A DNA stretch of 32,000 bases from a bacterium (GCA_024742815.1 JANSXX010000002.1:299395-331394); one strand, 5' to 3'. Positions 12,301-28,106 are shown, counted from the stretch's first letter. Notes: generated from the letters alone by a model not told the origin. Made by a program: numbers and translations.

Positions 12301-14184
12301 ATGGATACCATCGAACAAATCCCATTATCAACCAATATAAAATGTGGAAAGCATACCGACTTAGAAGAGGTGTTGAGCGTAGCTCCAAGTGTCACTTTGG
12401 CGCACAACTTAGAAGAGCTTGTTGATTTATCTGTTCCTTCCGGAGGATTAACCCATAATGTATGTTATGATTTACCTGATGGAACAAGATATTTAGAAGT
12501 AGAGGTAGCGAGAGTAAAAAATGGTATAGCAGCGAATTATACCGAATCATACATGAGAAGGAGAGACCCAAATTGTATGTTAATAGCAGACGACCTTCCT
12601 ACAGATAAGCCAAAATTTGAAGATAGATTCGATTATTCGTTCGATAGTTTACGCACCGAAACACTAGATTGGCTGAAAACACAGGATCTTGCTGTATTTT
12701 ATTTTAATGCAGGAAAGAAAGGAATGGGATACGATGCGATAGCAGTGATTCCAGCTAACGCGGGCTTTTTTGGGCTTGGGTTAGGTTTATTGCAAGGTAT
12801 CATCGACCCAGATGAATTACCGGAAGACTTTTCACCAGAAGCCGTTATCTATACCGCTCCAATTTTTCGCCACACTCATTTTGACGGAAAACAAATAGTG
12901 GTTCATAACCGAGTTCCCGGCAGATACGAAATGTTTAGCTACAACCTGTATCCTGGGCCTAGTGCAAAAAAGGGTGTTTATGGCATGCTTATTGGACAAG
13001 GTGAAAAAGAAGGTTGGGTTACAGCTCACTGTTCTGCAGTTCGAGCAGTTTCTCCATACGATAGCATTACAAATATCATGCACGAAGGTGCGAGTGGGGG
13101 AGGTAAAAGCGAAATGCTTCAACAACCTCACCGTCAAAGCGATGGCTCATTATTACTGGGCAAAAATATCGTAACTGGTGAGAAACGAACCTTAGAATTA
13201 CGTAGAACCTGCGATTTAGAACCTGTCACTGATGATATGGCGCTTTGCCACCCAAGTTTGCAAAAAAATGATGGTAAACTGTGGTTGGAAGACGCTGAGG
13301 AATCTTGGTTCGTTCGCGTTGATCATATCGATGAATATGGTACGGATATGATGTTAGAGAAGATCTCTGCAAAACCAGATCAACCATTATTATTTTTGAA
13401 TGTTGAAGCCGTTCCCGGCTCAAGAGCAATGATTTGGGAGCACAAAATGGATGCACCGGGTTTACCATGCCCAAATCCACGAGTTATAATTCCTCGAAAA
13501 TCAATGCCGGGCATATATTCTAATCCCATTGATGTTGATATCCGTAGTATTGGGTTAAGAACACCGCCAAGTACCGCCGAAAAGCCTAATTATGGTATCG
13601 TAGGATTGATGCATGTACTAAATCCATCTTTGGCTTGGTTATGGCGATTGGTTGCACCTCGTGGTCATGCAAATCCGAGCATTATTACCTCCGCTGGACT
13701 AAGTAGTGAAGGCGTAGGTAGTTACTGGCCATTTGCTACCGGTAAAAGAATTAATCAAGCAAATCTGTTACTCGAGCAAATCATTGATACTCCAAAAGTG
13801 AAGTACATACTTACTCCAAATCAATACATTGGAGCATGGAAAACAAGCTTTATGCCGCAGTGGATAAGTAGAGAATATCTTGCTCGAAAAGGTTCAGCTA
13901 ATTTCCCAGCAGAACAACTAAGTCCTTCAAGATGTAGTTTATTGGGGTATTCACTTAATTACATGAAAGTAGAAGGTATACAAATACCTAAGTGGATGCT
14001 TAAAGTGGAGTATCAGGAAGAATTAGGCAAAGAGGCTTATGATGTTGGAGCAAATATGTTACACGAGTTCTTCATTAAAACCCTAAGTAAATTTCAGGGC
14101 GATGGACTACATCCACTTGGCAAGCAAATCATAGAATGCTGTTTAGATAACGGTTCAACAGCTGATTACGAAGCTTTGCTATAA
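12301..14184 (+). CDS. DUF4914-like protein with an HprK/PEPCK-type P-loop
   Basis: 627 aa, soluble. It contains HEGASGGGKSEM, a G-x-S-G-x-GKSE Walker-A as in HPr kinase/PEP-carboxykinase-fold enzymes. The size (~630 aa) and FCB-group context match my recollection of the DUF4914 family. Not verified by search. Confidence 0.55.
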   Translation: MDTIEQIPLSTNIKCGKHTDLEEVLSVAPSVTLAHNLEELVDLSVPSGGLTHNVCYDLPDGTRYLEVEVARVKNGIAANYTESYMRRRDPNCMLIADDLPTDKPKFEDRFDYSFDSLRTETLDWLKTQDLAVFYFNAGKKGMGYDAIAVIPANAGFFGLGLGLLQGIIDPDELPEDFSPEAVIYTAPIFRHTHFDGKQIVVHNRVPGRYEMFSYNLYPGPSAKKGVYGMLIGQGEKEGWVTAHCSAVRAVSPYDSITNIMHEGASGGGKSEMLQQPHRQSDGSLLLGKNIVTGEKRTLELRRTCDLEPVTDDMALCHPSLQKNDGKLWLEDAEESWFVRVDHIDEYGTDMMLEKISAKPDQPLLFLNVEAVPGSRAMIWEHKMDAPGLPCPNPRVIIPRKSMPGIYSNPIDVDIRSIGLRTPPSTAEKPNYGIVGLMHVLNPSLAWLWRLVAPRGHANPSIITSAGLSSEGVGSYWPFATGKRINQANLLLEQIIDTPKVKYILTPNQYIGAWKTSFMPQWISREYLARKGSANFPAEQLSPSRCSLLGYSLNYMKVEGIQIPKWMLKVEYQEELGKEAYDVGANMLHEFFIKTLSKFQGDGLHPLGKQIIECCLDNGSTADYEALL

Positions 14185-14205
14185 GAAAGCATTATATGAA
14201 GTGTT

Positions 14206-14238
14206 CAAAAAGCGGGCAGTAATGCTCGCTTTTTTTGG
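14206..14238. terminator. Bidirectional intrinsic terminator between convergent genes
   Basis: CAAAAA-AGCGGGCA-GTAA-TGCTCGCT-TTTTTTT. The 8-bp stem has one G-U pair, with an A-run on one side and a T-run on the other. It sits between the stops at 14184 (+) and 14253 (-). Confidence 0.65.
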
Positions 14239-14252
14239 TTAAGAAACGAATA

Positions 14253-16136
14253 TTAAGGAATATACTCTAAGTAAAAAATAATAGGTTCTATTGAAAAGCC
14301 TGAATTCAACAATCGATTGAAAATAGTTTGGGTTTCATTTCTATTAACCGATTGTCCCGTCATTACAGAATATCGACCACTAACGAGTTCTTCTACGCGG
14401 GTATTTATTCCTGTTCTTGATCGTACTTGTTGTGCTAGTTCATTGGCCTCTTGTCGATTACTCAGTTCGTCAACTTGAATTTGGTAGGCATATTTGTACG
14501 TAGCAGCTGTTTCCGGTTGGTGACGAATAAATAGATTTGAAGAAATTCCCATCTCCCTGAAAGTGCGTAATTGTTCTAGAACTACCTCTCGAGACTCGTA
14601 TGGTCCGGTAAGTACATTAAAAGTATCGGAAACTCGATTCATGTAAGCTTGTACACCGTATCGATCTAACAATTCGATGGTGAAATCTAAGCCATTAGCA
14701 CGGGTTTGAAATGCACCAAATTGAATGAGGTATTTTACAGGTTTCGGCCGCTGAATGGTATTGTTGTAACACTGATGAACAACACTTACACTTTTATCAT
14801 TAATTCTTGATGATAATTCATTTCGTAAGCTAACAACCTCTGTAAACGAGGAAGTAGGAGGTGTTCTAACCGAATATTCGTTGGTGTTATAGGTAAGTAT
14901 CACATCCGCTAAGTTTGATGATTCTATCGCATCAGCTCGTTGAAATGCTGTTTGTAAAGCAGAAAACTCACCAAGTTGCACCGAATACTGGCATCGAGCA
15001 TCCACTCGCAATAACGATGGCATGGCATTACTTGATGATGGAATTTCTGTAGCAGATGGTTCCGGCTCTGATTGCTCTACTGGTTCTAGTTCTTCTTCAG
15101 CTTGAGAAACAGACTCTTGTGTAACACTATCAGGATCGTTTTGAGGCTCAGCAGTTTCGGTAGCTTGTTGTCGATCTGAATCGGAATTAACATCGTCAGT
15201 TGCTGGTGTTTCTTCTTGCTGTTCAGCTGCTAACTGATTTCGGATTCGGTTTTCTTCCATCACCGTTAGTAAAGCCGGTTCTTCAGCTAAAACTACAACG
15301 TTTTCATTCGGATCGGGAGGAGGGAGCTCAGAAATACCAGGAATATCATTACTTAAACTTTCAGGAGTTCCTGATTCAGTTTCGCCAATAAACGATTCGT
15401 CATCAGTTTCCGGTTGTGTAAGAATTTCTTCTTTCAAATTATCAGATGAGTAATAAAGCCTTAATACCACTCGGCGATTTTTTTCTTTACTAGCCGCAAA
15501 AGGAAAACCTAAAGAATCATATTCAATTACCGGACGAGAATCTGCATAACCAGATGCTTTAAGTCGATTTGCGGGGATTCCAGCATCATTAAAATACTTA
15601 ACTACGTTTGCTGCTCTTGCTGTAGAAAGTTCCCAATTTGAGGGATAAGCTACGGATGAGATTGGAGTATTGTCGGTATGACCCTCAACATCTATTAAAA
15701 AATCGTTGTACTTAACCTGTTGCATAGCTATTAAAACGGTATTTAATAGCTGTTCGGAATTCGGATCTAACTGAGCTCGGCCCGGATCATAAAGGTCATC
15801 ACTTTTAAAACGAATTCTTAGATCATTTAAATCACGAATGATCTCCAGATTACCGGCTTCAATCTCCGGTTGAAGCAATTCGAATAATTCTCGTTCTATG
15901 GCTCCGATGGGAGTGGTTAAAAACTCAGTTTCATCTGCTAGTTTGCCAAAAATGGATGAAAGTGAAGAAAATTCGGACTTTGTAATTTGTGAAACAGAAA
16001 GCAGAATTATTAAAAACCCTAATACGATTGTAATGATATCAAGATAACTTACTTGCCAGCTCTCATCATCTTCTGATTCTTCATCCGGTAGTGGAAAAAG
16101 TGAATATTTAATTCTTATTGGTTTCTTTTTCTTCAC
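14253..16136 (-). CDS. MotB-like stator subunit: N-terminal TM with a conserved Asp, an OmpA-like peptidoglycan-binding domain, an acidic disordered linker and three C-terminal SPOR-like domains
   Basis: GTG start 9 nt after the MotA stop. SWQVSYLDIITIVLGFLIILL places an Asp (residue 33) at the mouth of the single TM, as in MotB D32. OmpA motif: VEGHTDNTPISS..YPSNWELSTARAANVVKYF...RLKASGYADSRPV...NRRVVL. Residues ~238-372 are E/D/S/P/Q-rich. Three beta-alpha-beta-beta-alpha-beta-like units start at YSVQLGEF, YLIQFGAFQTRANG and YAYQIQVDEL. Confidence 0.8.
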   Translation of the reverse strand: MKKKKPIRIKYSLFPLPDEESEDDESWQVSYLDIITIVLGFLIILLSVSQITKSEFSSLSSIFGKLADETEFLTTPIGAIERELFELLQPEIEAGNLEIIRDLNDLRIRFKSDDLYDPGRAQLDPNSEQLLNTVLIAMQQVKYNDFLIDVEGHTDNTPISSVAYPSNWELSTARAANVVKYFNDAGIPANRLKASGYADSRPVIEYDSLGFPFAASKEKNRRVVLRLYYSSDNLKEEILTQPETDDESFIGETESGTPESLSNDIPGISELPPPDPNENVVVLAEEPALLTVMEENRIRNQLAAEQQEETPATDDVNSDSDRQQATETAEPQNDPDSVTQESVSQAEEELEPVEQSEPEPSATEIPSSSNAMPSLLRVDARCQYSVQLGEFSALQTAFQRADAIESSNLADVILTYNTNEYSVRTPPTSSFTEVVSLRNELSSRINDKSVSVVHQCYNNTIQRPKPVKYLIQFGAFQTRANGLDFTIELLDRYGVQAYMNRVSDTFNVLTGPYESREVVLEQLRTFREMGISSNLFIRHQPETAATYKYAYQIQVDELSNRQEANELAQQVRSRTGINTRVEELVSGRYSVMTGQSVNRNETQTIFNRLLNSGFSIEPIIFYLEYIP

Positions 16137-16145
16137 AACAGCCGC

Positions 16146-16943
16146 TTAAATCATGTTTTTATTTCGGCGCATATGTGCTTGAAGCTTATCGTAAATTTGT
16201 AGCGAAGTTTTTTGCTCTTCGATTAGAATAATTCCCTCCAGGATCAATTTCTCTCTAAAATACCGTAGTGAAGCCACATTATTCATCTTTTTAGCCATTG
16301 GCGTGAAAATAAAATTACCAATCAGAATACCATATAATGTGGTCATTAAAGCAGCACCTAACCCACTCAATAACGACTCTACTTCACTAAATCCTGATAG
16401 GATTACGATCAGGCCAAAAAGGGTTCCTAACATCCCGAAAACAGGAGATGTCTTGCCCATACTAGCAATAATTTGATTCACCATTTGCTGGCGAGAGTAG
16501 TTTTCTTCAATATTGATCTCCCCAAGCTCACGAAGATCTTCGGTGTCATAATTGGTATCCAAAATCGAAAATAAATACCCCTCGAAACGATCAGCATATT
16601 CTTCGCTGAGCTGAGTAACTGCCGCGAATTTATTTTGCTTAATCATCTTTTGCCAGTCCATTACCCGCTGTATGTCTTCTTCTAACACCTCGTGGGTGAT
16701 GGTGCTATAAGAAAACAGTTTAGTGCTTTCAACGAGCGCCTTAATTACACTATTGAAAGGATAGCTAATAAATACACTGGCAGTTATTCCTCCGAAAACG
16801 ATGGCTAAACTTGGCAGATTTAAAAAAGCGAATCGAGAGGGAATTAAATCGTATTGCGTATACCCGGTTACCAGAAGTGCACCCCAAACCAAAATCAACA
16901 AAGAAATTAGAAAACATAGAATATTGAGTATGGATGTACGCAT
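16146..16943 (-). CDS. MotA/PomA-like stator proton-channel subunit
   Basis: 265 aa with a 4-TM MotA topology: TM1-TM2 at the N-terminus, a ~100-aa charged cytoplasmic loop, TM3-TM4, then a cytoplasmic tail. TM3 TSPVFGMLGTLFGLI and TM4 ALMTTLYGILIGNFIFTPMAKKM carry the conserved Pro residues of the MotA_ExbB channel core. Confidence 0.8.
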   Translation of the reverse strand: MRTSILNILCFLISLLILVWGALLVTGYTQYDLIPSRFAFLNLPSLAIVFGGITASVFISYPFNSVIKALVESTKLFSYSTITHEVLEEDIQRVMDWQKMIKQNKFAAVTQLSEEYADRFEGYLFSILDTNYDTEDLRELGEINIEENYSRQQMVNQIIASMGKTSPVFGMLGTLFGLIVILSGFSEVESLLSGLGAALMTTLYGILIGNFIFTPMAKKMNNVASLRYFREKLILEGIILIEEQKTSLQIYDKLQAHMRRNKNMI

Positions 16944-16950
16944 AGAGTTA

Positions 16951-17508
16951 TTAAAAGCTCTTTGTTAAATTTTCATCGATTAATCCATTATTCTGAAGTT
17001 GCTGAATAATGTAGGTGGAAGAAGGTATGGGAACAGAAGGGTCCATTTCAAGAGCTCTTCGCCAGTGACTCACAAATTCATTGATATATCCCAATCCAAG
17101 ATAAATACTACCACGTAAGGCTAACACATCAGCATTTTCTTTGATCAGTGCAGCGCGGTTGATCAGGAAGAGCGCATTTTCAAAATCGCCGGTATAAAAG
17201 TGCTGTTGAGCAAGTATATAGTAGTTTGTAAGGGTATTCGCTTGTGCTTGATATCTTGAATAGATCTCATCTTTATATAATTCGATGAGAGCTTCACGAA
17301 GTTCTTCCTCTTTAGCTTGCGCTTGCTCCAAACTATCTTGTATTGCCAGTTGAAGGGAATCTTCCGGCGAGATGGTGTCTTGTTCAGCAATCGGATCAGT
17401 GAACTGATTACTAGATGCGCAATGAATAAAGAGTACCGAAAGAATTAAAAAAATTACAAAAGCAGGTCTATGTTTCATTTTCACCTGTACTTTATTTGTC
17501 ATTCGCAT
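16951..17508 (-). CDS. Secreted/lipoprotein TPR-repeat protein
   Basis: Signal peptide with Cys (MKHRPAFVIFLILSVLFIHCASS). The start at ATG 17478 is preceded by AGGTGA and may be the real one. The C-terminal TPR-like helices are paralogous to the C-terminus of the 994-aa outer-membrane protein. Confidence 0.65.
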   Translation of the reverse strand: MRMTNKVQVKMKHRPAFVIFLILSVLFIHCASSNQFTDPIAEQDTISPEDSLQLAIQDSLEQAQAKEEELREALIELYKDEIYSRYQAQANTLTNYYILAQQHFYTGDFENALFLINRAALIKENADVLALRGSIYLGLGYINEFVSHWRRALEMDPSVPIPSSTYIIQQLQNNGLIDENLTKSF

Positions 17509-19345
17509 TCTTGCGGATAGAATTCATTAAGAGAGCCTTAGCATATTCGGTTTGGCGACCGCTCGTTCCTTGAAGCTCTTCAAGTTCCATGCGTAACAAA
17601 CGTTGTTCTCGCGTAGGTCGCGCAGATAAAATTCGATCCACAACTTGAGGAGGTAACCCAACAATGGCGTCTAGTAATGTTTCTGTATTAAGTGTTCGAA
17701 CGGCTTTTTTAATGATTTCATCACTTAACTCAGGTAAACGATCGATAGTAATAAACTGCTTTTCCAAGATTGCTCCAACTATCGAGCCAGTAGCTTTTAA
17801 CTCATCAATATAACGTTGTTGTTCGTGTACCGGAAGTCGTTCTAAAATAGGATAGAGGTGTTCAGCACCATATTGCTCGCTTCGTTCAGCTTCCACTAAA
17901 TCCATGGCTTTGTCGAAGAGTTCTGACGATATCTTTTGCTGCTGCTCGTTAGTTAAATTATTCAGCGATGCCATATGCAACATGATTTTAGCGGCAATTT
18001 CTTTATCTAATTTTTCGATCAGTAATGCAGCTTTATCATCCGGGATATACTGAAGTATAAAAGCACCGGAAAGGCTGTCTTCCGTTTCCAGTAATGTGAG
18101 AATATGTTTATCTGAAATGTGATCGAGGAATTTGAATAGTGAAAATTTGCTACGTTTTTTCTCAGATACGGTTTGTTTAGCACCTTGTTGAAGCATTCGA
18201 GCAAATTCTTCTACAATTTCTGCTCGTCGCTCTGGCGCTAATTCCTCAAGCTCCAATAAAGCATCGCTCAGGCTGTCGTAATCTTCAGGATGAAGTTCCT
18301 TTTTTAAAGTTCGTAGCAGATGTTTGTCGACAGCCACTAGATATTCAGCAGCTTTTTTAGCCCCGTTTTCTTCTTCACTTAACCAATACCTGAAAATAGT
18401 GGCAATCTCCTCAGGCTTAGTAAAAAATGCATTAACAATATCTTCTGTCGTCATGTCCTCATCACTTTGCTCAATATCACCCTTTACTTGCTCAGTGCTG
18501 GAAAAAGGTTGAGCCGACTGTTGTTGCGTGGCCATATCATTTTTAAGTGTATCCCGATAATCCCGAAGGGGAATTTGGGGCTGGGGCTTGTTCATCAATT
18601 TGTTAAACAAAAGTGTAAGCCCAAATAGCAGCATTAATGCCAATGCAGGAATATAGGTGTAGATGGAGTTGTAATCGGGCGCAGCAGGCTGTTGTACAAC
18701 AGTAGTAGCCGTAACAGGTTCGGGGGCCTCGGTATAATCTGGGATGGCTAATTGGGATATGGTGATTTCATCACCTCGAGCCTCGTTGATTTTTACTGCG
18801 ATTCCTGTAATAAATCGCATTAACTCAAGTTGAGCAGTAGTAACCGAAGTATCTGCATAAATATTAACGCTCATGTTAACGATACGCAGCGTTTTTATGG
18901 TATTTTCGTTTACAATAGTTTCAGGTTGCCGGTTACGGTTAGCAGGCTGACGAAGATTTTGTTCAGGCAAGAAGGGAAGGCCAGGCATGAATAGATTCTG
19001 CTCTTGTTGGCTCGATTCTACTACTTGATTACTGGTAGTACCTATCGTTTGATCGATCAGCTCAGCATTAATATTTACATCGATAAAAAATTTCTTTCGA
19101 TTGAAGTAATTTGAAAGAATTTGGATGATTTGGGAATCATACTGTTGTTCCAGATTGGCAACGCGTAGTTCAAGAGATTGAGAACTGTATGGATCAAAAG
19201 CCGTTTGAGCGCGAGTGTTGGTAGAGGCAAGGAAACAAGTTGTTAAAAATAGAAGAGCTAGTAATTTCACGCCAAAATTGGTTAAAATTTTGGCAAGCAT
19301 AGAGTCAAATATGTGACGTATTCTGTGCATTTTAATCTGATGCAC
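17492..19345 (-). CDS. Membrane-anchored mini-FliF::FliG fusion protein (FliF-like periplasmic ring-building region, TM helix, and a complete FliG N/M/C cytoplasmic region)
   Basis: The ORF opens at GTG 19345. ATG 19330 lies 1 nt after the upstream stop (TAAaATG) and is the likely start. Periplasmic part (nt ~18662-19210): IKTLRIVNMSVNIYAD...TTAQLELMRFITGIAVKINEARGDEITISQLAIP parallels the FliF end motif (..rlsVaVvv..lt.eq...i..lv..a.G....RGD.l.V...pF). A TM helix follows (IPALALMLLFGLTLLF). The cytoplasmic ~320 aa (nt ~17495-18448) align by eye with FliG. LQYIPDDKAALLIEKLDKEIAAKIMLHMASLNNLT corresponds to LSHLPPEKAAEVLSLLPEELRAEVLLRIATLESVS. FITIDRLPELSDEIIKKAVRTLNTETLLDAIVGLPPQVVDRILSARPTREQRLLRMELEELQG corresponds to FENLVDVDDRSIQRLLQEVDSESLLIALKGAEPPLREKFLRNMSQRAADILRDDLANRG. 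Confidence 0.7.
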   Translation of the reverse strand: MHQIKMHRIRHIFDSMLAKILTNFGVKLLALLFLTTCFLASTNTRAQTAFDPYSSQSLELRVANLEQQYDSQIIQILSNYFNRKKFFIDVNINAELIDQTIGTTSNQVVESSQQEQNLFMPGLPFLPEQNLRQPANRNRQPETIVNENTIKTLRIVNMSVNIYADTSVTTAQLELMRFITGIAVKINEARGDEITISQLAIPDYTEAPEPVTATTVVQQPAAPDYNSIYTYIPALALMLLFGLTLLFNKLMNKPQPQIPLRDYRDTLKNDMATQQQSAQPFSSTEQVKGDIEQSDEDMTTEDIVNAFFTKPEEIATIFRYWLSEEENGAKKAAEYLVAVDKHLLRTLKKELHPEDYDSLSDALLELEELAPERRAEIVEEFARMLQQGAKQTVSEKKRSKFSLFKFLDHISDKHILTLLETEDSLSGAFILQYIPDDKAALLIEKLDKEIAAKIMLHMASLNNLTNEQQQKISSELFDKAMDLVEAERSEQYGAEHLYPILERLPVHEQQRYIDELKATGSIVGAILEKQFITIDRLPELSDEIIKKAVRTLNTETLLDAIVGLPPQVVDRILSARPTREQRLLRMELEELQGTSGRQTEYAKALLMNSIRKNANDK

Positions 19346-22316
19346 GCCTATTCACCCTTTCTTCAAGTACTTCCATATCCGGAATTACAAGGTCGGGGTT
19401 AAATCGGAGTGCCTGTTCCCAATGTCGTTGCGCCTGATCGATGTTACCTTCAAAATAATAAAAACTTCCCTTTAAAGCGTGTGCTTGTGCAGTTTCAAAA
19501 AGTTCTAATGATTCGTTAACATAGCGGAAGGCTAAGTCTATGTTGTTAGAATAAAAGGCGTTTTGAGCTTTGATTATGAGCCGTAAAGCATTATCAACTT
19601 CTTTAAATACTTCTTGAGAATATTCTAATATTTCTGGCGACGATTTTATCTCGTCGGTAACCTGTGCAATAGTGAGCGCGGCAAGGCTGTCTTCTTGGGA
19701 TTGTTGTTGTACATCAAGAGGGTAGAGCTCGAAATTTAGTCCTTCTACAAAATCACCATCTCTAGTAGTTTCAACCTCAAAGTTTATAAGTTCAGGCTCG
19801 GATCTTGACTGAAGTATTGAAAGTTGAGAGGGATCAATTTCTAACCTGTAATCACCCGGGCGAATAGGATATTCATAAAAACTTCCATCAGAAAATGTTC
19901 TAAGTTCCTTTACCTCATTCTCTTTTAGATCAGTAAGAAGCACTTTAAGTCCTCCAATCCCTTGCGATAATCCACCTTCGTAAATTCTAGCAACATTTCC
20001 TTCCATTACGCCACTCATGTTGAATGGGATATCTATTAGTTTAAAACTATTAGGATCCGTAATTATCGAAAATTTATCTTCTTCAGGTACCAACATTGGG
20101 TTTTTAATTGACGCCTGATTTAGTTCAACGTTGTAACGAAAATATGAGTTTAATTGAGTGTAATACAGGATTCCATTTTTAGAAACAGATGAAGCACCGC
20201 TTCTACCTAGTCTCAAGTTTATATCATCAAGTAATTCATCTTCCGATTCTTCATAAACTCCATTAGTGTTATTGTCCACAAAAAACCGAACTGCAGTTGC
20301 AGACCTTCCAACCTGATTACGGCTTGTCCAGATAAAATTATTAAAGTTAGAATCATAACCGATAGACCCCCTAACTGTTTGGCTTGCGCTTGTATTTCCT
20401 CTAATGAAAGTTGATGTAGAATTTGATCTTACTTTACCGAAATCGATGACAAAATTGAGTCTAATCGTATTAAATTGTCCTTGAAAATTTCTACCAAAAG
20501 ATGCCTGAATTCTTCCTTGGTTAAAAACACTTCGAGAAACAAGAACTTCGCCTTGCTGAAATTCATTAGTTGATGGTAAAAAGCGAAATTGACTTCTTAT
20601 AAATGTACCCCTTATAAATTTTGGGATATTTGGGTTCCTCGAAAAGTTATAGGTTATGGCAGATTCTACTAATCCTGAACCGGAACTGTTAAAAATATTG
20701 TAGGAGTCAATAATTCTGTCGGTATATCCTAATCTAAAATTAATTCTACTAATTTTTGCACTGACATCAGTTCTAATGGTACTTATACTTACCCCTTCAC
20801 GTACTCTTGTGAAATTGGAGTATCTCAATCCAAAAGGTTGATTGAAGATTTTTATAGGGAAGAAAACATTACCAATAAATTGGTAGTCATTATTGGAGCT
20901 ATTGAAAAAATTAGATTCCCCGGTGAAATTTGTAAAATCAAAATTTAAGCTTGCAGAATTTGGATAAACAGCATTTACTGAAGAACGTAAATATCCGTCG
21001 GTTACACCTTCAAGTGTTAAAATGTAATTTCGTGCAATTCTGCTGGAAAGGGTTGCAGTGTAAAAGGGAATATTCTTGCCAATTTCTGTCGAGTAATATT
21101 CCATACCAACTTTCGAGCTTAACCAGCGATTTATCCCATAGCTAACGTTAGCCTGCAGTGTTTTTTCTCTTTCTAATTTACCGATTACTCTGTTATCTAA
21201 AACCCCAGCATTAATACGATAATCAAACTCACCTTGTGGTACGAAATTAAACGGGATTTGCTGTCGATTCCTTTGTTGAATTACTTGTCCTGTTGGCCCG
21301 TAAATTCTTATGTCTAGTTGGGTTGTTCCATAATATTGTGGAACTAAAAATCGATAATTTCCGAATTCATCGGCTTGGCTAAAATCAATTAATGCATTAT
21401 CTAGATATAGTTCGATTTCAGACTGTGGTATAGTTGTGCCTTGTAGCTCAAATTCATCAAAAAGTCGCCGAGGTTCAATTGGTTCGTTCGAGATTCTAAT
21501 CCCCGTATAACTGTTCATAAAAACTCCATCTGTATTTGATTGCCCAACAGTTATAGAACTCAACCACGAGTTGTTTCGGATAAGAGTTTTCCAGCGTAAG
21601 TTATTGCTTTCAAATACAGAACTTTCTGAGCTAAAATTTCCAAATAAACTACCTTGTAAATCTCCCCCTAATAGTTGTAATCCTAAAGAGCTACTGTAAT
21701 TAAAGGAGCTTAATTCGCTACTTAAATTAGTTCCAACACTGTAATCAAGAAATCCCCCGTCAACTATTTTTCTCTCCAAACCATACCCAATGGGATAATA
21801 GCTAACATCCCTTCGATTGGTGTTTGCAAGCTTCAATTTTGCTCTTCGTAAAAATTGTTGGATAATTGGAATTTCAACTTCTGTTTCTAATCGGAGCGTT
21901 AGATTGTTAAAGTCAACAGAGAAGTCTAAACCAAATATTTCAGAAAAGTATCTGGGAGGTAAGTATGTATCCAGATCTGTAAGTATGTAGTCATCGGTAG
22001 TGATTGAATAAGATTGATCACCAAAAACGATTGTTTGCCTTCTTAAATCAATTGAGTAAGGGGTTTGTTCTAGGGCAAACTTACCACTAATAACAATGTC
22101 GTTTACATTTGCCTCAATATGAAGTAGTTCAAATAATTCCTTTACAGGTAAATTAAATTCTTCACCATCATAATAAGCTATCACATAAGAATTAATTACT
22201 CCACGATGGCTAAATTGGAGATATACTTCGAAATCATCTTCACTTTGAGCGTAAACAGAACTACTAAATATTAGTAGCAAAAAAAAAAAGAGAAAAAAGC
22301 CTAGGCATTTTCTCAA
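19332..22316 (-). CDS. Large outer-membrane protein: usher-like beta-barrel with CarboxypepD_reg-like beta-sandwich inserts and a C-terminal TPR module
   Basis: TTG start overlaps the chaperone-like stop (TTGA). Signal peptide MRKCLGFFLFFFLLLIFSSSVYAQ. Long runs of alternating amphipathic beta-strand sequence rich in Y/F/N/S/G/R. Beta-sandwich-like segments GNYRFLVPQYYGTTQLDIRIYGPTG and DGSFYEYPIRPGDYRLEIDP. A TPR tail at the C-terminus. The usher role is inferred from position (after the chaperone-like gene, next to the pilin-like genes) and size, not from recognised motifs. Confidence 0.45.
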   Translation of the reverse strand: MRKCLGFFLFFFLLLIFSSSVYAQSEDDFEVYLQFSHRGVINSYVIAYYDGEEFNLPVKELFELLHIEANVNDIVISGKFALEQTPYSIDLRRQTIVFGDQSYSITTDDYILTDLDTYLPPRYFSEIFGLDFSVDFNNLTLRLETEVEIPIIQQFLRRAKLKLANTNRRDVSYYPIGYGLERKIVDGGFLDYSVGTNLSSELSSFNYSSSLGLQLLGGDLQGSLFGNFSSESSVFESNNLRWKTLIRNNSWLSSITVGQSNTDGVFMNSYTGIRISNEPIEPRRLFDEFELQGTTIPQSEIELYLDNALIDFSQADEFGNYRFLVPQYYGTTQLDIRIYGPTGQVIQQRNRQQIPFNFVPQGEFDYRINAGVLDNRVIGKLEREKTLQANVSYGINRWLSSKVGMEYYSTEIGKNIPFYTATLSSRIARNYILTLEGVTDGYLRSSVNAVYPNSASLNFDFTNFTGESNFFNSSNNDYQFIGNVFFPIKIFNQPFGLRYSNFTRVREGVSISTIRTDVSAKISRINFRLGYTDRIIDSYNIFNSSGSGLVESAITYNFSRNPNIPKFIRGTFIRSQFRFLPSTNEFQQGEVLVSRSVFNQGRIQASFGRNFQGQFNTIRLNFVIDFGKVRSNSTSTFIRGNTSASQTVRGSIGYDSNFNNFIWTSRNQVGRSATAVRFFVDNNTNGVYEESEDELLDDINLRLGRSGASSVSKNGILYYTQLNSYFRYNVELNQASIKNPMLVPEEDKFSIITDPNSFKLIDIPFNMSGVMEGNVARIYEGGLSQGIGGLKVLLTDLKENEVKELRTFSDGSFYEYPIRPGDYRLEIDPSQLSILQSRSEPELINFEVETTRDGDFVEGLNFELYPLDVQQQSQEDSLAALTIAQVTDEIKSSPEILEYSQEVFKEVDNALRLIIKAQNAFYSNNIDLAFRYVNESLELFETAQAHALKGSFYYFEGNIDQAQRHWEQALRFNPDLVIPDMEVLEERVNRRASD
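22279..22289 (-). repeat. Homopolymeric T11 tract (A11 on + strand) inside the signal-peptide coding region of the usher-like gene
   Basis: Counted directly: CTC TTT TTT TTT TTG encodes LFFFL of MRKCLGFFLFFFLLL. A further A6 run lies 3 nt away. Confidence 0.9.
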
Positions 22317-23179
22317 CGTTTAATAAATGTAGTAGTTTCTGTAACATTTGGCATTTGAACTAGATCAGAATCTGGAATATCACTTCGTCGACTCTCAAAT
22401 GTAGTTCTGATTAGATATTCACCATTCGGAATATCGTCGATTTCGAATTCTTGACGGAAAATGCCGTCAAAATATAATGATGTTGATAAGAAGCCACGTC
22501 GTACTTCCTGTCCGTTACTATCAATAATAGAAGTTGTAATAGAGCCTAAAAATGGGCTGTTACCGGTTCGTAAATGATCAATAAGAACAATAAGCTTTCC
22601 TGACTCAGAATCATATTCAGTTCTAATTTCTTCTATATCTATACCAGTTGCAACATCGCCTTTTTTATAAAATATACCTGTCACCTGCTCTACTCTAATA
22701 CCCACTCTTGCAGCAACTGTATTTTCGGTTTGTAATTCTATCGGCGGTGTTTCAGGTGTGGAAGCAGTCTTAATCCTTGCCCAGTAGGTCCCATCCTCAA
22801 GTTCATTGGGAGGATTCAGTCGAAGTCTGATTACTTGTCTTTGCCCCGGAGCGAGTGTAAAATTTCTGGGAAAAGCACGAATGTACTCGGCAATCGAGTG
22901 TTTCTCTCTCATCTGCTGATCATCCTGTACAATGGTTCTATATCCTTGCTCGTCACTTTCGGTGTAAGCGAAAGCAAAATCTATAGATATTTCTTGAGTC
23001 TCATTTGAGTTGTTGATCACCATGTAGGTCCCAAATCGAGCATTTTCAGCCACGAATAAGTTAGTGGGGGCAATGGTTACTTGTGCAGTTGCGATCGAGA
23101 TAGATGATATTATAGATAGTATCGCTGTAAATGTAATAATAGACTTCATCGCGTAGATATAATTTGCCATCGAGATCAA
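22313..23179 (-). CDS. PapD-like periplasmic pilus chaperone candidate (two Ig-like domains)
   Basis: The ORF opens at TTG 23179. Alternative ATG starts lie at 23170 and 23149 (MKSIITFTAILSIISSISIATAQ is a good signal peptide). VTIAPTNLFV...GTYMVINNS and IRAFPRNFTLAPGQRQVIRLRL..P.ELEDGTYWARIKTASTP mirror the PapD domain-1 pattern (v.l..tR.if......l.v.N ... atPP..rl.Pg..q.vRl....lP.DrEslf..n...iP). Confidence 0.5.
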   Translation of the reverse strand: MISMANYIYAMKSIITFTAILSIISSISIATAQVTIAPTNLFVAENARFGTYMVINNSNETQEISIDFAFAYTESDEQGYRTIVQDDQQMREKHSIAEYIRAFPRNFTLAPGQRQVIRLRLNPPNELEDGTYWARIKTASTPETPPIELQTENTVAARVGIRVEQVTGIFYKKGDVATGIDIEEIRTEYDSESGKLIVLIDHLRTGNSPFLGSITTSIIDSNGQEVRRGFLSTSLYFDGIFRQEFEIDDIPNGEYLIRTTFESRRSDIPDSDLVQMPNVTETTTFIKR

Positions 23180-23246: not shown

Positions 23247-23278
23247 AAAAAAAAAGTCTCACAGCTGTGAGACTTTTC
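23247..23278 (-). terminator. Strong intrinsic terminator (or attenuator) after the major pilin-like gene
   Basis: Perfect palindrome AGTCTCAC-AGCT-GTGAGACT (23255-23274). On the minus strand it is followed by nine U (A9 at 23247-23255 on + strand). It lies 24 nt downstream of the stop at 23298. Confidence 0.7.
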
Positions 23279-23297: not shown

Positions 23298-23849
23298 TTA
23301 TTGATAGTTAACAGTAACGTTTAGGTCACCAGATGCACCAGCTGTTCCAGAATCAGAAGTATAGGTACCGGATGCTTGTGAAGAAAGAGTACCTAGATTA
23401 CCACCGATGTATACAAATAAGTCGCCAGAACCAGAGGTTTCAGTAGCTGCAGTCGCAGTATTTTTTGTAATGTCAGTTGAAGATGCAATGGCATCTGTAC
23501 TGTTACCAGAGAAGTCTGGAGTGAAAGTCATAGAATTAGTTCCATTACTTAAGGTAACTGTCGCTTGATCCCAATCAATTAATAATTGAGTAGAGTTAGC
23601 TGCACTAATAGTTAGTTTACCAAAAGTTGCTCCAGCACCTACATCTGCTGTACTAGCACCTTGTGGATCAAGTACCGGGCTACCAGTATCCTGAATGTTA
23701 CCAAAACTAACATCAGTATTTTTAGTTAATGTAATGTCAGCAAGTACAACGGCACCAATGTTAACATCAACGTTTTCCTGTGCAAAAGCACCAGTTGCGA
23801 ATAGAGCAACGATTGCGAAAGCGGCAAATATATTTTTTAGATTTTTCAT
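23298..23849 (-). CDS. DUF4402/SCPU-like secreted pilin-type subunit; candidate major subunit
   Basis: Signal peptide MKNLKNIFAAFAIVALFATGAFAQ. N-terminal strand with alternating hydrophobics, NVDVNIGAVVLADITL. VSFGNI motif. Thr/Ser/Ala/Gly-rich body. C-terminal LFVYIGGNLG...ASGTY....GDLNVTVNYQ with a penultimate Tyr. It has its own flanking intergenic regions and terminator. Confidence 0.6.
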   Translation of the reverse strand: MKNLKNIFAAFAIVALFATGAFAQENVDVNIGAVVLADITLTKNTDVSFGNIQDTGSPVLDPQGASTADVGAGATFGKLTISAANSTQLLIDWDQATVTLSNGTNSMTFTPDFSGNSTDAIASSTDITKNTATAATETSGSGDLFVYIGGNLGTLSSQASGTYTSDSGTAGASGDLNVTVNYQ

Positions 23850-23949
23850 AGAAGTATTGATTTAGTGGCTTTTAAAATTTCTGTTAAAAAATTATTGATT
23901 GTTCAATCTGATTCCTAGTTAAAAACTCTTAATTAAAATTGTCTAAATA

Positions 23950-24474
23950 TTAATCGTACTCAATTAGCAAGAGAATCTCACCGCTATATTCTCCTTCATT
24001 TATGTTACCTACATTAATTGAACCATAAATGTAAAGATAGATCTCTTCCCAAAATTCTTGATTATTGTTCAATGCTCGAGTTGCTCGCTCCGAAACAGGT
24101 AAGTAGCCAGAATTTCCAACCAAAAGTGTCGAATTGTTGATGTTTCTGTTACCTGAATTGTTATATGAAGCATTTATGGTTAATGGAATATTATCCTCGA
24201 TCGCGGGATTTTCATGAGTTAAAAACTCTGGGTATTCTATACTGACATAAATATTTTGAGTGTAATAAGCGCGGATATTAAAAATACCCATATTTAAATC
24301 ACCTAATTCTACTTCAGAGACACCGGAATTAATTACTAGTTGACCAAAGCTCAAATTTTGTTCAACAGTGGCTGACAACTCAGGTTCTACTCTTATCTGT
24401 AGATTAATGAATTGAGCAATTGCATTGTTATTTAGCAATAAAAAAAACCATATAAATAAGCAGTGCCTAATCAT
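23950..24474 (-). CDS. DUF4402/SCPU-like secreted pilin-type subunit (paralog)
   Basis: Signal peptide, LSFGQL motif, and C-terminal IYLYIYGSINVGNINEGEYSGEILLLIEYD. Its start overlaps the upstream stop by 8 nt (ATGATTAG). Confidence 0.55.
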   Translation of the reverse strand: MIRHCLFIWFFLLLNNNAIAQFINLQIRVEPELSATVEQNLSFGQLVINSGVSEVELGDLNMGIFNIRAYYTQNIYVSIEYPEFLTHENPAIEDNIPLTINASYNNSGNRNINNSTLLVGNSGYLPVSERATRALNNNQEFWEEIYLYIYGSINVGNINEGEYSGEILLLIEYD

Positions 24475-25051
24475 AGTTTATTGTCACATTCACTGTTCCC
24501 GTGTAACTTCCAGCGTCTACATTTCCAACATTAACTGATCCGTAGATGTAAATGTAGGCAGTTTCATTAAAAAGAGATGGGTTGAATCCTTCATAAACAG
24601 GAGTTGGTGGAGGACCAGGAGGAACATTACCTCTATATTTAATTGGGAATTGCTCACTTGCAGTAGTTCCGGAGACTAGAAAATCTGATACTTGGGAAAT
24701 ACTCATAATACCTCTGTTGGCATAGGATGCTTGCAGAGTGTAAGGAATCCGACAACTTGGATTAGTTTGACAAGAAAGATTCCCGTTTAACAAAAGATAT
24801 TGATCGGCTGTTAGATCAACTATAATATCGAGATATTTGACGCCTTCAATAGTCAGTACTTTCGCGTTGTCTATTGTTACTGTTGAAACTCCGTCATTTT
24901 GGATTAAAGTGCCAAAATCAAGTTCAGATCCAGGGCTTAGTTCAGATAGCGTAACAGAATAACTACTACTAAAACTTCCAAAGTCTATTTCTTGTGCATG
25001 TAAAGTTACACTGAGAAATGATAGTGATAGTATGAAAGCTAATTTCGACAT
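24467..25051 (-). CDS. DUF4402/SCPU-like secreted pilin-type subunit (paralog, with a Pro-rich insert)
   Basis: Signal peptide MSKLAFILSLSFLSVTLHAQ, LDFGTL motif, insert NVPPGPPPTPV, and C-terminal AYIYIYGSVNVGNVDAGSYTGTVNVTINYD. Confidence 0.55.
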   Translation of the reverse strand: MSKLAFILSLSFLSVTLHAQEIDFGSFSSSYSVTLSELSPGSELDFGTLIQNDGVSTVTIDNAKVLTIEGVKYLDIIVDLTADQYLLLNGNLSCQTNPSCRIPYTLQASYANRGIMSISQVSDFLVSGTTASEQFPIKYRGNVPPGPPPTPVYEGFNPSLFNETAYIYIYGSVNVGNVDAGSYTGTVNVTINYD

Positions 25052-25057
25052 TCAATT

Positions 25058-25549
25058 CTATATGTAATCAATTTCAATGGTGAAGTCTCCTTCGTAATTA
25101 CCCGGTTGAGCATTGGTTAGGTTAACTTCTCCACCTACCCAAATGTAGTATGTCCCTTGATTATTGAATCGCAAATTTCTGTTTTCGTAATCTATTAATT
25201 GCGAACTTGTTTGATCCTCTATACTGTTACCACTTAGTTCATATCTGAAGTTTAAAAATCCTTCACCTTCAATTCGGTTTAACTGACGATCTAATTCATA
25301 TTCAAGTCTAAATTCTGCATCAGGAGTACCATTTGCTATCATGAATCCGGCATTCAAGTCATTAACAGGATTCACGTAAATAACTTCTTGACCTGGTTGG
25401 CTATTACCAAAAGTCATCGTATTCACGGTGATTAATTCAATAGACTGAATAACGTTTGCCTGAATACTTACTTCAGCTGATAATTGATTACTCTCCTGAG
25501 AAAAAACCAGACATGGAAATAACAATAAAAGTAGAAATATATAACGCAT
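25058..25549 (-). CDS. DUF4402/SCPU-like secreted pilin-type subunit (paralog)
   Basis: Signal peptide MRYIFLLLLLFPCLVFSQ, MTFGNS motif, and C-terminal TYYIWVGGEVNLTNAQPGNYEGDFTIEIDYI. Confidence 0.55.
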   Translation of the reverse strand: MRYIFLLLLLFPCLVFSQESNQLSAEVSIQANVIQSIELITVNTMTFGNSQPGQEVIYVNPVNDLNAGFMIANGTPDAEFRLEYELDRQLNRIEGEGFLNFRYELSGNSIEDQTSSQLIDYENRNLRFNNQGTYYIWVGGEVNLTNAQPGNYEGDFTIEIDYI

Positions 25550-25643: not shown

Positions 25644-26039
25644 TCACCACGCGAAGGCGTTGAAATAGAAGGGATCTAGCTCGATTTCTCTTCCCTGGAG
25701 TTGTATTGAACGTGGCAGTACTTCGGTAAGGCGTACGTAATTGGATGTCATCTCAAAATTGTAATTGAGCATCTGATTTCTGAATCTGGATGAAAACCGT
25801 ACGGTGATGGAGTAGATGCTGTCCCGAGGTGCCTCGTCTACCAGATAATAGGGGTTGGGAGTGTTGATCGGATAGAGATCGCCAACAATTTTGATTTGAT
25901 CTCGACCGGGTATAAAAGTGCTATCTTCAAGCTGTGGTTTCAGATTTACACTAAAAGTGATCGAAGTTTGAGCTTGAAGATAGCTTGAGGTTGAAATAAA
26001 AAGAGTAATAAAAAATACTAAATAAGATAGTGTTCGCAC
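25644..26039 (-). CDS. Small secreted beta-sandwich protein (CBM20/Ig-like pattern), function unknown
   Basis: GTG start 1 nt after the stop of the 490-aa gene. Signal peptide ending YLQAQ. ITFSVNL....GRDQIKIVGDL......YYLVDEAPRDSIYSITVRF....LNYNFEM resembles a starch-binding-like sandwich but lacks the usual Trp residues. Confidence 0.4.
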   Translation of the reverse strand: MRTLSYLVFFITLFISTSSYLQAQTSITFSVNLKPQLEDSTFIPGRDQIKIVGDLYPINTPNPYYLVDEAPRDSIYSITVRFSSRFRNQMLNYNFEMTSNYVRLTEVLPRSIQLQGREIELDPFYFNAFAW

Positions 26040-26040
26040 G

Positions 26041-27513
26041 TTAGTTATTGCTTTTGTTTACTTCGTCTTTCCAGTATACAATAGAGAAAACACTTTCTCT
26101 TGGGAATGATGGTGGAATAGTTGCCTTCAACCGGTTGTCATATTGGTAATTCTTGATGTAGCCGGAAACTACCGTACTTCCGGAAAAGGTGCCAACCGGT
26201 CCACGATTTTGTTGAATGATTCCACCTAACATATTTAGTGTACCTTTGCTACCACCAGAATTATAGTTCTCTACGGTAAAAGAGGTATTTAGCGCTACAA
26301 TAGATGCATGAATGGTTAAATCCTGAGAACCATTAGCCGAATGGGCATATCGATCAACTACAACATCTCCTTCGCTCACCAAACCGAGTAAGTCGGCAGA
26401 CGTTGAATCGGCAAGGGGGTTAACGCGGTAAGTAATATCGCCCATAATTTCGATTTCATCTTCGGCGTGTAAGGTTACACTGCCGCTAACTTCACCCTGT
26501 ACTTTTATTTCACCATCCGTAGAAATCACACCATTAATGTCGGCCAGGTTTACCGTTTCAACGGTTGGTGGAGTTGGAGGAATGGGAGTACACCACCACA
26601 TCCAATTAGCACAGTCATTCCCCGGTGAGCCACCATAAGAAATATCAGCATAGCCATGATCAGCATCGTAGTAAAAATCTACATTAATATCCCCTGAGTA
26701 TCTTTTCCCACCATCGTTAGCAGCAGCAACAAGTCGGTTAATTTCGTAACTCGTAGGTTCACTTTTTAGCGGTGCGTTGAAGTTTTCTCCACCATAGAAG
26801 TTTGGATTCGTCGGGTTGGTACTGTGAGCTCGCCACATATTTGGGCTCGTAACCAATCCATAAAAAGAGGGTGCACCAGACATCGCGAATTGCCCATTGG
26901 TATGGATTGGACCATAAATATTATCCTGATCCATAAACCAAATGGTAGAGCCATTAGCAGCTAACTCAGATTGAGTCATGTAGGAATACTTACTAAAGGA
27001 ATCTCGTTGCATCAACACTTCGGTAGTCACTTCAATATCATCGTATGTGCTTGAACTTACCAGCAGTACTTTATATTCGTCCCAACTACCTACACTATTG
27101 TTCGGTTTGTTTTGACTGTCTTGGGTATAGCTATTTAAAGAACCTGCGAGGTTAATAGGTAAGGTAATACCGGTTTGGTTAAGTTGATCTTCAAGTTGCT
27201 CTTCTATTTCTAGCACTTCATCTAAACCTAGTAACCCTAAGCTTAGTTTTTTTCGACCTTCATTTGAGCGTGAAAGTAAAGCTTTGGTATCCACTACCTC
27301 ATCTATGTCGATGCTGCCTACCCAGTTGTTATTGTCTTTCATCGTTTCAACCGCATTGTCGATTAAACTTTTAGACAGATTTCTGGCTTGTTGCGCTTTG
27401 TAATAATCGGTAGTTACAACTGGGATTTCGGCCACACGATCTTGGTTGTTTACCTGCACAATGCCCGTTAAAATTGTAAGTCCGCTTACTAAGAATAATA
27501 AACTTCTTCCCAT
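26041..27513 (-). CDS. PilX/GspK-like large minor-pilin-type protein with an N-terminal hydrophobic anchor
   Basis: ATG preceded by a strong SD (AAGGAGAAGTT-ATG). The N-terminus is MGRSLLFLVSGLTILTGIVQV, followed by YYKAQQARNLSKSLIDNAVE (PilX_N-like helix). The C-terminal end GTLNMLGGIIQQNRGPVG....SGYIKNYQYDNRL...PPSFP resembles the conserved ending of PilX-like proteins as I recall it. Confidence 0.45.
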   Translation of the reverse strand: MGRSLLFLVSGLTILTGIVQVNNQDRVAEIPVVTTDYYKAQQARNLSKSLIDNAVETMKDNNNWVGSIDIDEVVDTKALLSRSNEGRKKLSLGLLGLDEVLEIEEQLEDQLNQTGITLPINLAGSLNSYTQDSQNKPNNSVGSWDEYKVLLVSSSTYDDIEVTTEVLMQRDSFSKYSYMTQSELAANGSTIWFMDQDNIYGPIHTNGQFAMSGAPSFYGLVTSPNMWRAHSTNPTNPNFYGGENFNAPLKSEPTSYEINRLVAAANDGGKRYSGDINVDFYYDADHGYADISYGGSPGNDCANWMWWCTPIPPTPPTVETVNLADINGVISTDGEIKVQGEVSGSVTLHAEDEIEIMGDITYRVNPLADSTSADLLGLVSEGDVVVDRYAHSANGSQDLTIHASIVALNTSFTVENYNSGGSKGTLNMLGGIIQQNRGPVGTFSGSTVVSGYIKNYQYDNRLKATIPPSFPRESVFSIVYWKDEVNKSNN

Positions 27514-27522
27514 AACTTCTCC

Positions 27523-28104: not shown

Positions 28105-28106
28105 GG

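Follow-up and report, generated by a model that had tools for sequence, protein, structure and literature searches.

The 32-kb stretch of DNA analysed here (GCA_024742815.1, JANSXX010000002.1:299395-331394; referred to below as the window) carries on its minus strand ten genes in which the components of a chaperone-usher (CU) pilus are followed directly by homologs of the flagellar motor proteins FliG, MotA and MotB. It is somewhat probable, in our judgment, that these ten genes encode an archaic CU pilus system (SCPU/DUF4402 type) and, physically docked to it, a minimal ion-driven motor of the flagellar type. From comparative genomics we infer that the motor may serve to energise or to rotate the pilus machinery. 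Judging from the sequence, the host is a marine Balneolaceae bacterium of the Fibrobacteres-Chlorobi-Bacteroidetes (FCB) group that bears a type IX secretion system (T9SS); the protein matches of six open reading frames (ORFs) of the cluster carry Balneolaceae names, and T9SS C-terminal sorting domains were found on two proteins of the window.

Organization of the gene cluster

A preliminary description of this DNA had proposed a six-gene operon on the minus strand, and all six ORFs were present in the ORF listing of the 32-kb window, from which the genes and their junctions were taken. They encode a CU-type periplasmic chaperone (22313-23179, 288 aa), an usher (19332-22316, 994 aa), a FliF-like::FliG fusion protein (17492-19345, 617 aa), a small tetratricopeptide repeat (TPR) protein (16951-17508, 185 aa), a MotA-type stator subunit (16146-16943, 265 aa) and a MotB-type stator subunit (14253-16136, 627 aa). 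The tight packing was also as described, with overlaps of 4 nt (22313-22316), 14 nt (19332-19345) and 17 nt (17492-17508) and gaps of 7 nt and 9 nt. The usher/fusion junction would alternatively read TAA-a-ATG if the fusion protein starts at the ATG at 19330, and most homologs start about 15 codons later; the GTG and TTG starts are mechanical first-start calls of the ORF listing. The extent of the proposed operon did not hold, since the co-conserved unit comprises ten genes and includes four pilin-like genes (23298-25549). Their order is four DUF4402/SCPU-like pilins, chaperone, usher, FliF::FliG, TPR protein, MotA and MotB. Because a strong terminator-like hairpin separates the last pilin gene from the chaperone gene, the six genes might be transcribed by read-through or as an attenuated sub-unit and not as a separate operon.

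In a survey of the family by a pattern scan, in which each species was represented by one genome, the fusion protein was found in 42 species, essentially all of them Balneolaceae. Examples of sequences bearing the motor-type locus are the complete chromosomes OZ245822.1, OZ271839.1 and CP051242.1 and, for Balneola sp. EhC07, NZ_LXYG01. The neighbourhood was conserved throughout, with the ten genes collinear at every one of the 42 species loci and the identity of the fusion protein falling as low as 38%. Pfam scans of the 32 kb agreed with the earlier statement that the window lacks other flagellar genes. The flagellum-encoding locus expected around stators of the flagellar type was not found, as only FliF-like, FliG, MotA and MotB sequences are present in the 32-kb window and in the flanks of ±10 kb of the loci examined, and neither contains an export apparatus, rod, hook, filament, FliM or FliN.

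The motor proteins

The MotA-type protein crosses the membrane in four transmembrane (TM) segments and has a loop of about 100 aa on the cytoplasmic side. Its assignment was upheld by a match to PF01618 (61.8 bits) and by its ten solved relatives, all of which are flagellar MotA or PomA proteins (best E=1e-22), with ExbB and TolQ absent from among them. When the protein was compared with NCBIfam, the MotP, MotA and PomA models gave E=1e-26 to 1e-30, and the TolQ and ExbB models gave E>0.02. A TM scan placed the membrane segments at approximately aa 1-30, 39-63, 164-193 and 190-213, leaving a large loop between TM2 and TM3. Two prolines, P167 and P215, are invariant in 40 of 40 sequences and match in position those of Clostridium MotA (P173 and P222 in E. 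coli). The four TM segments, the large TM2-TM3 loop and the two prolines are together those of a flagellar-type A subunit.

The MotB-type protein consists of a TM segment with Asp33, a plug, an OmpA-like domain, an acidic linker and a C-terminal SPOR array, and it was correctly recognised earlier, because the scores for MotB_plug (31.8 bits, cut-off 24), OmpA (58.7 bits) and SPOR (50.2 bits) are all over the Pfam cut-offs. Asp33 lies inside a WQVSYLD motif, and both motif and residue are invariant (40/40). A TM aspartate, a plug and an OmpA-like peptidoglycan-binding domain are the features of a flagellar-type B subunit. The same protein matches the ZorB models of PADLOC (E=6.5e-18), as would be expected if the locus encoded anti-phage defence of the Zorya kind, with a MotAB-like pair at its core. 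The likelihood of this is negligible, because the ZorB match covers the generic TM and OmpA region of MotB, PADLOC reported no ZorA match for MotA and no ZorC or ZorD, and the partners encoded at the locus are FliG and pilus genes. A Zorya defence system, which combines ZorA and ZorB with ZorC/D or ZorE, was therefore rejected on composition.

The fusion protein begins with a signal or first TM segment and a periplasmic region of about 180 aa, followed by TM2 (aa 227-252), a FliF-C-like helix (aa ~305-325) and the three FliG domains (aa 328-615). The FliG identity is firm, with scores for FliG_N (38.9 bits), FliG_M (34.7 bits) and FliG_C (38.5 bits) each above its Pfam cut-off, and the C-terminal half aligns with full-length FliG of Salmonella, Thermotoga and Aquifex in the PDB. 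Residues R576, R579, E580, Q581 and E587 are invariant in all 42 sequences; in a pairwise alignment, R579 corresponds to R281 of Salmonella FliG and E587 to D289, while the positions equivalent to K264, D288 and R297 of the charged torque helix (E. coli numbering) are V, M or L, and variable, respectively. The EHPQR motif by which FliG_M binds FliM is absent, its position being occupied by E-D-S-L in the fusion protein of the window and varying within the family. Since FliM, FliN and this motif are all missing, the rotor would be unswitched.

The FliF assignment was the weakest of those made earlier and stands in part. In its favour, TIGR00206 (fliF) matches aa 166-325 with E=2e-4, at the very C-terminal end of the model, and a P-E-E-I-A-x-L-F-x-x-W motif resembling FliF-C directly precedes FliG_N in all lineages. 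The topology, with a TM or signal segment at aa 16-42 and a TM segment at aa 227-252 in the TM scan, is also like the two-TM plan of FliF. Against it, YscJ_FliF_C remained below threshold (in 13 of 21 family members, best E=0.004), and the FliF half gave neither a PF01514 match nor a match of its profile to the PDB. A profile of the PEEIAxLFxxW helix ranked the FliG_N-binding FliF-C peptide of T. maritima (5TDY_A) 4th of 177,635 PDB sequences, although with a weak E value of 0.65, and the 59-aa FliF-C-like segment alone matched nothing in the PDB. The N-terminal half of the fusion protein is therefore best described as probably FliF-like. Engineered FliF-FliG fusions have been reported to assemble into rings (10.1101/2023.02.06.527414, PMC11481574), which makes it plausible that the natural fusion protein would form a ring as well.

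The small TPR protein matches TPR_2 and TPR_8 (E=1e-5) and has an N-terminal signal, in which the hydrophobic stretch ends in ...LFIHC with a possible lipobox cysteine. It was found in every motor locus, including those that lack an usher.

The chaperone and the usher

The earlier assignments of a PapD-like chaperone and an usher held at the level of the fold, through AlphaFold models, but not at that of sequence profiles, where Pfam, NCBIfam and the PDB gave no match. The Pfam PapD_N, PapD_C and Usher models matched neither protein, and searches with NCBIfam and with family hidden Markov models (HMMs) against PDB sequences returned only TPR matches for the two. The AlphaFold models of the usher and the chaperone, built on multiple sequence alignments of 41 and 49 homologs, were confident.

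The chaperone, with two predicted beta-sandwich domains, was modelled by AlphaFold2 with a predicted local distance difference test score (pLDDT) of 87.3 and a predicted template modelling score (pTM) of 0.76. Foldseek matched this model to CfaA, FimC, EcpB, CsuC, Caf1M, SafB and PapD in the PDB, which represent every class of CU chaperone (E=1e-9 to 1e-7, template modelling scores normalised to the target of 0.5-0.6). At the fold level, therefore, the protein resembles the two-domain Ig-like periplasmic chaperones of the CU pathway, and the Gram-positive WxLIP fold matches the model equally well.

In its AlphaFold2 model (pLDDT 82.3), the usher has the canonical order of usher domains, to which a C-terminal TPR domain (aa ~884-988) is added. 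The usher body (aa 1-873, 19697-22316) consists of an N-terminal domain, a large beta-barrel with a plug-like insert and two C-terminal beta-sandwich domains, and is followed by a linker of low confidence (aa 870-891). The top 19 Foldseek matches in the PDB are all FimD or PapC (E=6e-29 to 3e-10, target-normalised scores up to 0.59), and full-length FimD aligned to the model over 907-923 columns. This identifies the fold as that of an outer-membrane usher; for the number of strands, which is 24 in known ushers, the comparison concerns a predicted barrel only. The TPR tail (aa ~874-994, 19332-19696) is helical in the model and matches TPR_2 with E=4.6e-5. We propose that it is a docking adaptor to the motor.

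Evidence for a link between the usher and the motor

The functional link between pilus and motor had been drawn from synteny only. It is now supported by a TPR paralogy, by a breakpoint that falls at a domain linker and by an exchange of the SPOR array. The motor and CU modules each also exist alone. The 185-aa TPR protein of the motor has a paralog in the usher tail (aa 866-979; 30% identity, E=7e-10), and ushers contain this paralog only where the motor is present. Furthermore, the window and another genome, L001, are 95-100% identical across the region except from about 25,600 to 19,696, where identity drops to 50-70%. This replaced cassette of 5.9 kb comprises the four pilins, the chaperone and the usher body, so that the usher body is 56-69% identical to that of L001 and the TPR tail 96-100%. 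The downstream break is sharp at usher aa ~873/874, inside the low-confidence linker, and the TPR tail therefore stays with the motor genes. Surface-antigen loci that undergo recombinational replacement typically show divergence of this kind. We also observed that the cassette of the window is nearer to that of L002 (84-92% protein identity), which is a more distant genome.

A third line of evidence comes from loci in which the motor is missing. Balneola vulgaris DSM 17893 (L046), Gracilimonas and Fodinibius have, at the same chromosomal site, pilins, a chaperone and an usher of 1169-1240 aa, and no gene for the fusion protein, the TPR protein, MotA or MotB is present at this site; the flank with pyruvate dehydrogenase (PDH) and alanyl-tRNA synthetase genes is kept in B. 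vulgaris and Fodinibius. These ushers lose homology to the usher of the window at approximately aa 874-927 and then continue into a SPOR array that is collinear with aa 357-581 of MotB. The motor-less allele is most simply derived by deletion of the stretch between the usher linker and the MotB linker, which implies that the MotB tail acts where the usher does.

The motor-less allele also bears on an interpretation in which the motor proteins perform no work on the fibre and instead serve as an anchor or a load sensor, either tethering the usher to the peptidoglycan and the inner membrane or reporting the load on the pilus through ion gating, much as load is sensed by flagellar stators. In the motor-less relatives a peptidoglycan-binding SPOR array replaces the whole connection to the motor, which suggests that anchoring is the minimal function retained, and both the partial conservation of the torque-helix charges and a CheR gene located after MotB in the locus L047 would be compatible with such a role. 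However, Asp33, the plug and both MotA prolines, which are hallmarks of ion conduction and gating, are invariant with a ratio of nonsynonymous to synonymous substitution rates (dN/dS) of 0.07, a costly arrangement for a passive tether, and R579 and E587 of FliG_C are invariant as well. We therefore regard an anchor or sensor as distinctly unlikely.

Conservation within and beyond the Balneolaceae

An exhaustive profile search with the fusion protein yielded 148 clusters at 50% identity (E<=1e-30), nearly all of them 580-750 aa in length and matched end to end; a metagenome scan with P0091 as the sole query found no relatives. Nine distant contexts of the fusion family were sampled. In three of these (L043, L049/L050 and L053), the gene immediately upstream of the one for the fusion protein encodes a true usher homolog, and chaperone and pilin homologs are present as well where the contig extends far enough. 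The usher-fusion-TPR-MotA-MotB order is the same in L043, in which the fusion protein is 21% identical and the usher 35% identical (E=2e-80), and in L049/L050 and L053, in which the usher HMM gave E=1e-271 and 5e-235, respectively. The fusion proteins of these three lineages are about 20% identical or match the family profile with E=1e-32 to 1e-73, and the lineages are as divergent from one another as from the usher-less clade. Because the order is the same in 42 species genomes and in three distant lineages, the adjacency of these genes is not due to chance.

The other six distant contexts contain stand-alone cassettes, situated among housekeeping genes, in the order of fusion protein, secreted protein of about 360-395 aa, TPR protein, MotA and a short MotB. 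The secreted proteins form a homologous group without a Pfam match. A CheR gene follows MotB in one of these cassettes, as mentioned above, and a PorP_SprF gene does so in another (L052). The existence of motor modules without an usher means that the output of the module is not intrinsically an usher. The core invention is thus the FliF::FliG-TPR-MotAB module, and the usher is one partner of it.

Partial flagellar gene sets in Balneolaceae have been read as signs of ongoing loss (PMC9909488), and the motor genes might accordingly be taken for a decaying remnant of an ancestral flagellar regulon. This is very improbable. The motor ORFs are intact at the loci of 39-42 species, dN/dS is approximately 0.07 for MotA, MotB and the fusion protein (0.074 for MotA), the catalytic residues are invariant, and no gene of the cluster is more conserved than MotA (66-99% identity). 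In addition, at least 148 clusters share the same end-to-end architecture. Strong purifying selection, combined with intact ORFs at all loci, excludes decay.

Pilin-like subunits and the intergenic hairpin

The four pilin-like subunits form one family of signal-peptide proteins, with pairwise hhalign probabilities of 96-99.6%; the DUF4402 cut-off was passed by one of the four, and two were slightly under it. Subunit 1 (25058-25549, 163 aa) is DUF4402-like (E=2.6e-4, under the cut-off), has a signal peptide, aligns with the family of the 183-aa subunit with an hhalign probability of 98.3% and is collinear in 39 loci. Subunit 2 (24467-25051, 194 aa) is the one that passed, with 27.9 bits (cut-off 25.2), and it also resembles SCPU weakly (E=0.073). 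Subunit 3 (23950-24474, 174 aa), for which no Pfam match was found, is paralogous to subunit 2, with the family of which it aligned at an hhalign probability of 99.6% (E=1.5e-23), and the two have in common an LxFG motif and a C-terminal Y-G...I/V-x-Y-D motif. Subunit 4 (23298-23849, 183 aa; DUF4402 E=4.9e-5) is the most variable gene of the cluster, with between-species identities of 31-84%, and is probably the major subunit. In the CU pathway, pilins have an incomplete Ig fold that donor-strand exchange completes, and those of archaic systems belong to SCPU/DUF4402. With one predicted chaperone and one predicted usher, these four putative subunits make up a Csu-like "archaic" layout.

The promoter/terminator scan identified, on the minus strand at 23251-23278, a terminator- or attenuator-like hairpin with a 12-bp stem, a 4-nt loop and a T-run, located after this last and most variable pilin gene and before the chaperone gene. 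In classical pap and fim pilus operons, attenuator stem-loops are found after the major-pilin genes. The hairpin resembles these attenuators, and by analogy it would fit high expression of the pilin and low expression of the machinery.

Proposed mechanism

If the pilus is docked to the motor, MotB would anchor a MotA5B2-type unit to the peptidoglycan through its OmpA-like and SPOR domains, and ion flow would drive MotA against the conserved charged helix of FliG_C. With FliG covalently joined to a bitopic FliF-like segment, force or rotation would cross the inner membrane to the periplasmic domain of the fusion protein, which would probably form a ring. This domain might then engage the TPR protein and its paralog, the usher TPR tail. 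In this manner, ion-motive force could reach the usher and either gate or speed the translocation of subunits, or turn, pull or retract the fibre.

Several observations weigh against a motor-driven pilus. The contacts between the usher and the motor parts are predicted from comparative genomics, and no use of rotation by a monomeric or dimeric barrel is evident. Only two of the five classical charges of the FliG torque helix align (the R281 and D289 equivalents), and the equivalents of R90 and E98 of MotA are ambiguous. The FliF homology is weak (best E=2e-4, no match of the profile to the PDB), and ring formation is only predicted. Moreover, many genera have kept the CU module in the absence of the motor, and the motor is therefore not needed for basic pilus assembly but adds a property to it. 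Six of the nine distant contexts have the motor cassette without a detectable usher, which weakens the notion that the motor exists for the pilus and at the same time strengthens the notion that a flagellar-type rotor-stator works outside flagella. Finally, an unrelated gene for the PDH E2 subunit is also syntenic in the family, so that collinearity within the family alone is weak evidence.

Some of these observations would be explained if two independent machines were encoded side by side, namely an autonomous envelope motor device and a conventional, energy-independent CU operon as its neighbour. The stand-alone five-gene cassettes among housekeeping genes (L047, L048, L051, L052, L054 and L055), the motor-less CU loci of B. 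vulgaris, Gracilimonas and Fodinibius and the synteny of the E2 gene all agree with such an arrangement. We nevertheless consider it unlikely, because the usher has its motor-type TPR paralog at motor-bearing loci only, the breakpoint parts the usher body from a tail that travels with the motor, the SPOR array changes places between MotB and the usher, four very divergent lineages preserve the adjacency, and the genes of the window overlap.

Comparison with known systems

The pilus part of the system resembles archaic CU pili such as Csu of Acinetobacter (CsuA/B-A-B-E, CsuC and CsuD) and the Mcu spore coat of Myxococcus, which likewise have four small subunits of the SCPU/DUF4402 type, a two-domain chaperone and an usher. 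CsuC is among the best structural matches of the chaperone model and has the highest score normalised to the query (0.44), and the known FimD and PapC ushers have the same domain order as the usher of the window. In contrast to known CU systems, the usher of the window has an extra C-terminal TPR domain (SPOR in the motor-less loci) and is encoded beside FliF::FliG, the TPR protein, MotA and MotB, and its sequence and that of the chaperone are too divergent for the Pfam Usher and PapD models. To our knowledge, the CU systems described so far are without an inner-membrane component, and their ushers work without cellular energy. Here, an inner-membrane, potentially energy-transducing component is encoded with the usher, whose gene overlaps that of the fusion protein, is followed by those of the TPR protein, MotA and MotB, and ends in a motor-type TPR tail.

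The motor part shares with the bacterial flagellum (FliF MS-ring, FliG and MotA5B2) the three FliG domains, the MotA hallmarks and the aspartate, plug and OmpA-like domain of MotB, and its nearest solved relatives are flagellar. The contact between FliF-C and FliG-N in the flagellum is mirrored in the fusion protein, where FliG follows the FliF-C-like helix. On the other hand, the system lacks the export apparatus, rod, hook, filament, FliM, FliN and EHPQR motif, its FliF-like part is only about 250 aa and is fused to FliG, and its NCBIfam scores are far under the cut-offs of the flagellar equivalogs (54 versus 227 bits for FliG and 105 versus 394 bits for MotP). The system of the window is not a flagellum.

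In concept, it is also like ExbBD-TonB, TolQR-TolA-Pal, GldLM/PorLM of the T9SS and AglRQS-Glt, in which an inner-membrane ion channel powers an outer-membrane machine. ExbBD-TonB, TolQR-TolA and GldLM act through a periplasm-spanning partner (TonB, TolA or GldM), and FliG is absent from all of these systems, AglRQS included, whereas the stator of the window is of the flagellar type, would act on a cytoplasmic FliG and would have the usher as its target. Another parallel is SiiAB of Salmonella pathogenicity island 4 (SPI-4), a MotAB/ExbBD-like proton channel that is encoded with an export apparatus for an adhesin, which requires it. SiiAB differs from the system described here in that it serves type 1 secretion, has no FliG or FliF partner and is unrelated to CU pili.

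No published description of an usher-motor system was found in the literature searched, which left most subscription journals outside, and the system appears to be undescribed and to fall outside known categories. A survey of stators treated the "FIT" features as flagellum-specific and mentioned neither Bacteroidota nor ushers (PMC12505986). It has also been reported that 11% of the species lacking motility keep rotor proteins, the role of which was posed as an open puzzle (10.1101/2024.12.05.626484). Balneola, Gracilimonas and Fodinibius were found to be without flagellar assembly genes and Aliifodinibius to have a partial set, in a study whose coverage did not include the clade of metagenome-assembled genomes considered here (PMC9909488). 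B. vulgaris has been described as motile with flagella (PMC5167729, Table 1). The genus has been reported to be without flagellar assembly genes (PMC9909488); the motor described here was rejected as the basis of this motility, since the type strain has the motor-less allele of the pilus locus.

Neighbouring genes

A short, GC-rich inverted repeat with flanking A- and T-runs was noticed by eye at 14190-14250, between the convergent MotB and DUF4914 genes. The terminator scan made no call there, and the repeat may be a bidirectional terminator at the 3' end of the unit. The DUF4914 gene (12301-14184, plus strand, 981 bits) lies between the MotB and PDH E2 genes only in the window and in L001. 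At all other loci the E2 gene is located directly after MotB, and the insertion of the DUF4914 gene therefore looks recent. Some 11-13 kb away on the plus strand are genes for a CheY-like single-domain response-regulator receiver (125 aa, 3001-3378) and a MerC-family protein (1526-1912), whose connection with the cluster is not evident.

On the other side, upstream of the pilus genes, a block at 25644-28526 on the minus strand encodes proteins of 131, 490, 193 and 139 aa with hydrophobic N-termini, one of them a DUF4900 protein. Of the 42 motor-type loci, about 24 have this block beside the pilus genes, as do the motor-less loci, and in Gracilimonas and Fodinibius part of it is duplicated; the "Balneola sp." clade lacks it. 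The block may be accessory to the pilus system. Further along on the minus strand (28800-31793) is a gene for an Invasin_D3 protein of 997 aa with a T9SS C-terminal sorting domain, which nearly all loci have immediately upstream of the pilus cluster. The motor-less loci have it there too, with a size of 1739-2522 aa, and the protein may be a co-regulated adhesin.

Implications

Assembly of CU pili is the textbook case of an energy-independent process, and an ion-driven motor acting at the usher, if confirmed, would overturn this rule for one lineage and add a class of powered fibres. FliG and flagellar-type MotAB are treated as exclusive to the flagellum, and the family described here, with its at least 148 clusters, offers a concrete, conserved and testable answer to the question of rotor proteins in non-motile species. 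It also provides a minimal rotor-stator system of four or five genes in which the origin or the reduction of the flagellar motor could be studied, and natural controls are available in the motor-less allele at the same locus of B. vulgaris DSM 17893 and in a cultured motor-type strain, Balneola sp. EhC07.

A bolder version of this interpretation, which we think rather unlikely, is that a genuine flagellar rotor-stator, with a FliF/FliG ring and MotAB, operates outside the flagellum as a general trans-envelope engine and in Balneolaceae drives the CU pilus by rotating, extruding or retracting the fibre. If this were true, the pilus would be a new kind of powered pilus, possibly one supporting a new form of surface motility. 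The stand-alone FliF::FliG-TPR-MotAB cassette would then be a radically reduced flagellum or else a relic of a pre-flagellar rotary module, and the origin of the motor would be testable by phylogeny.

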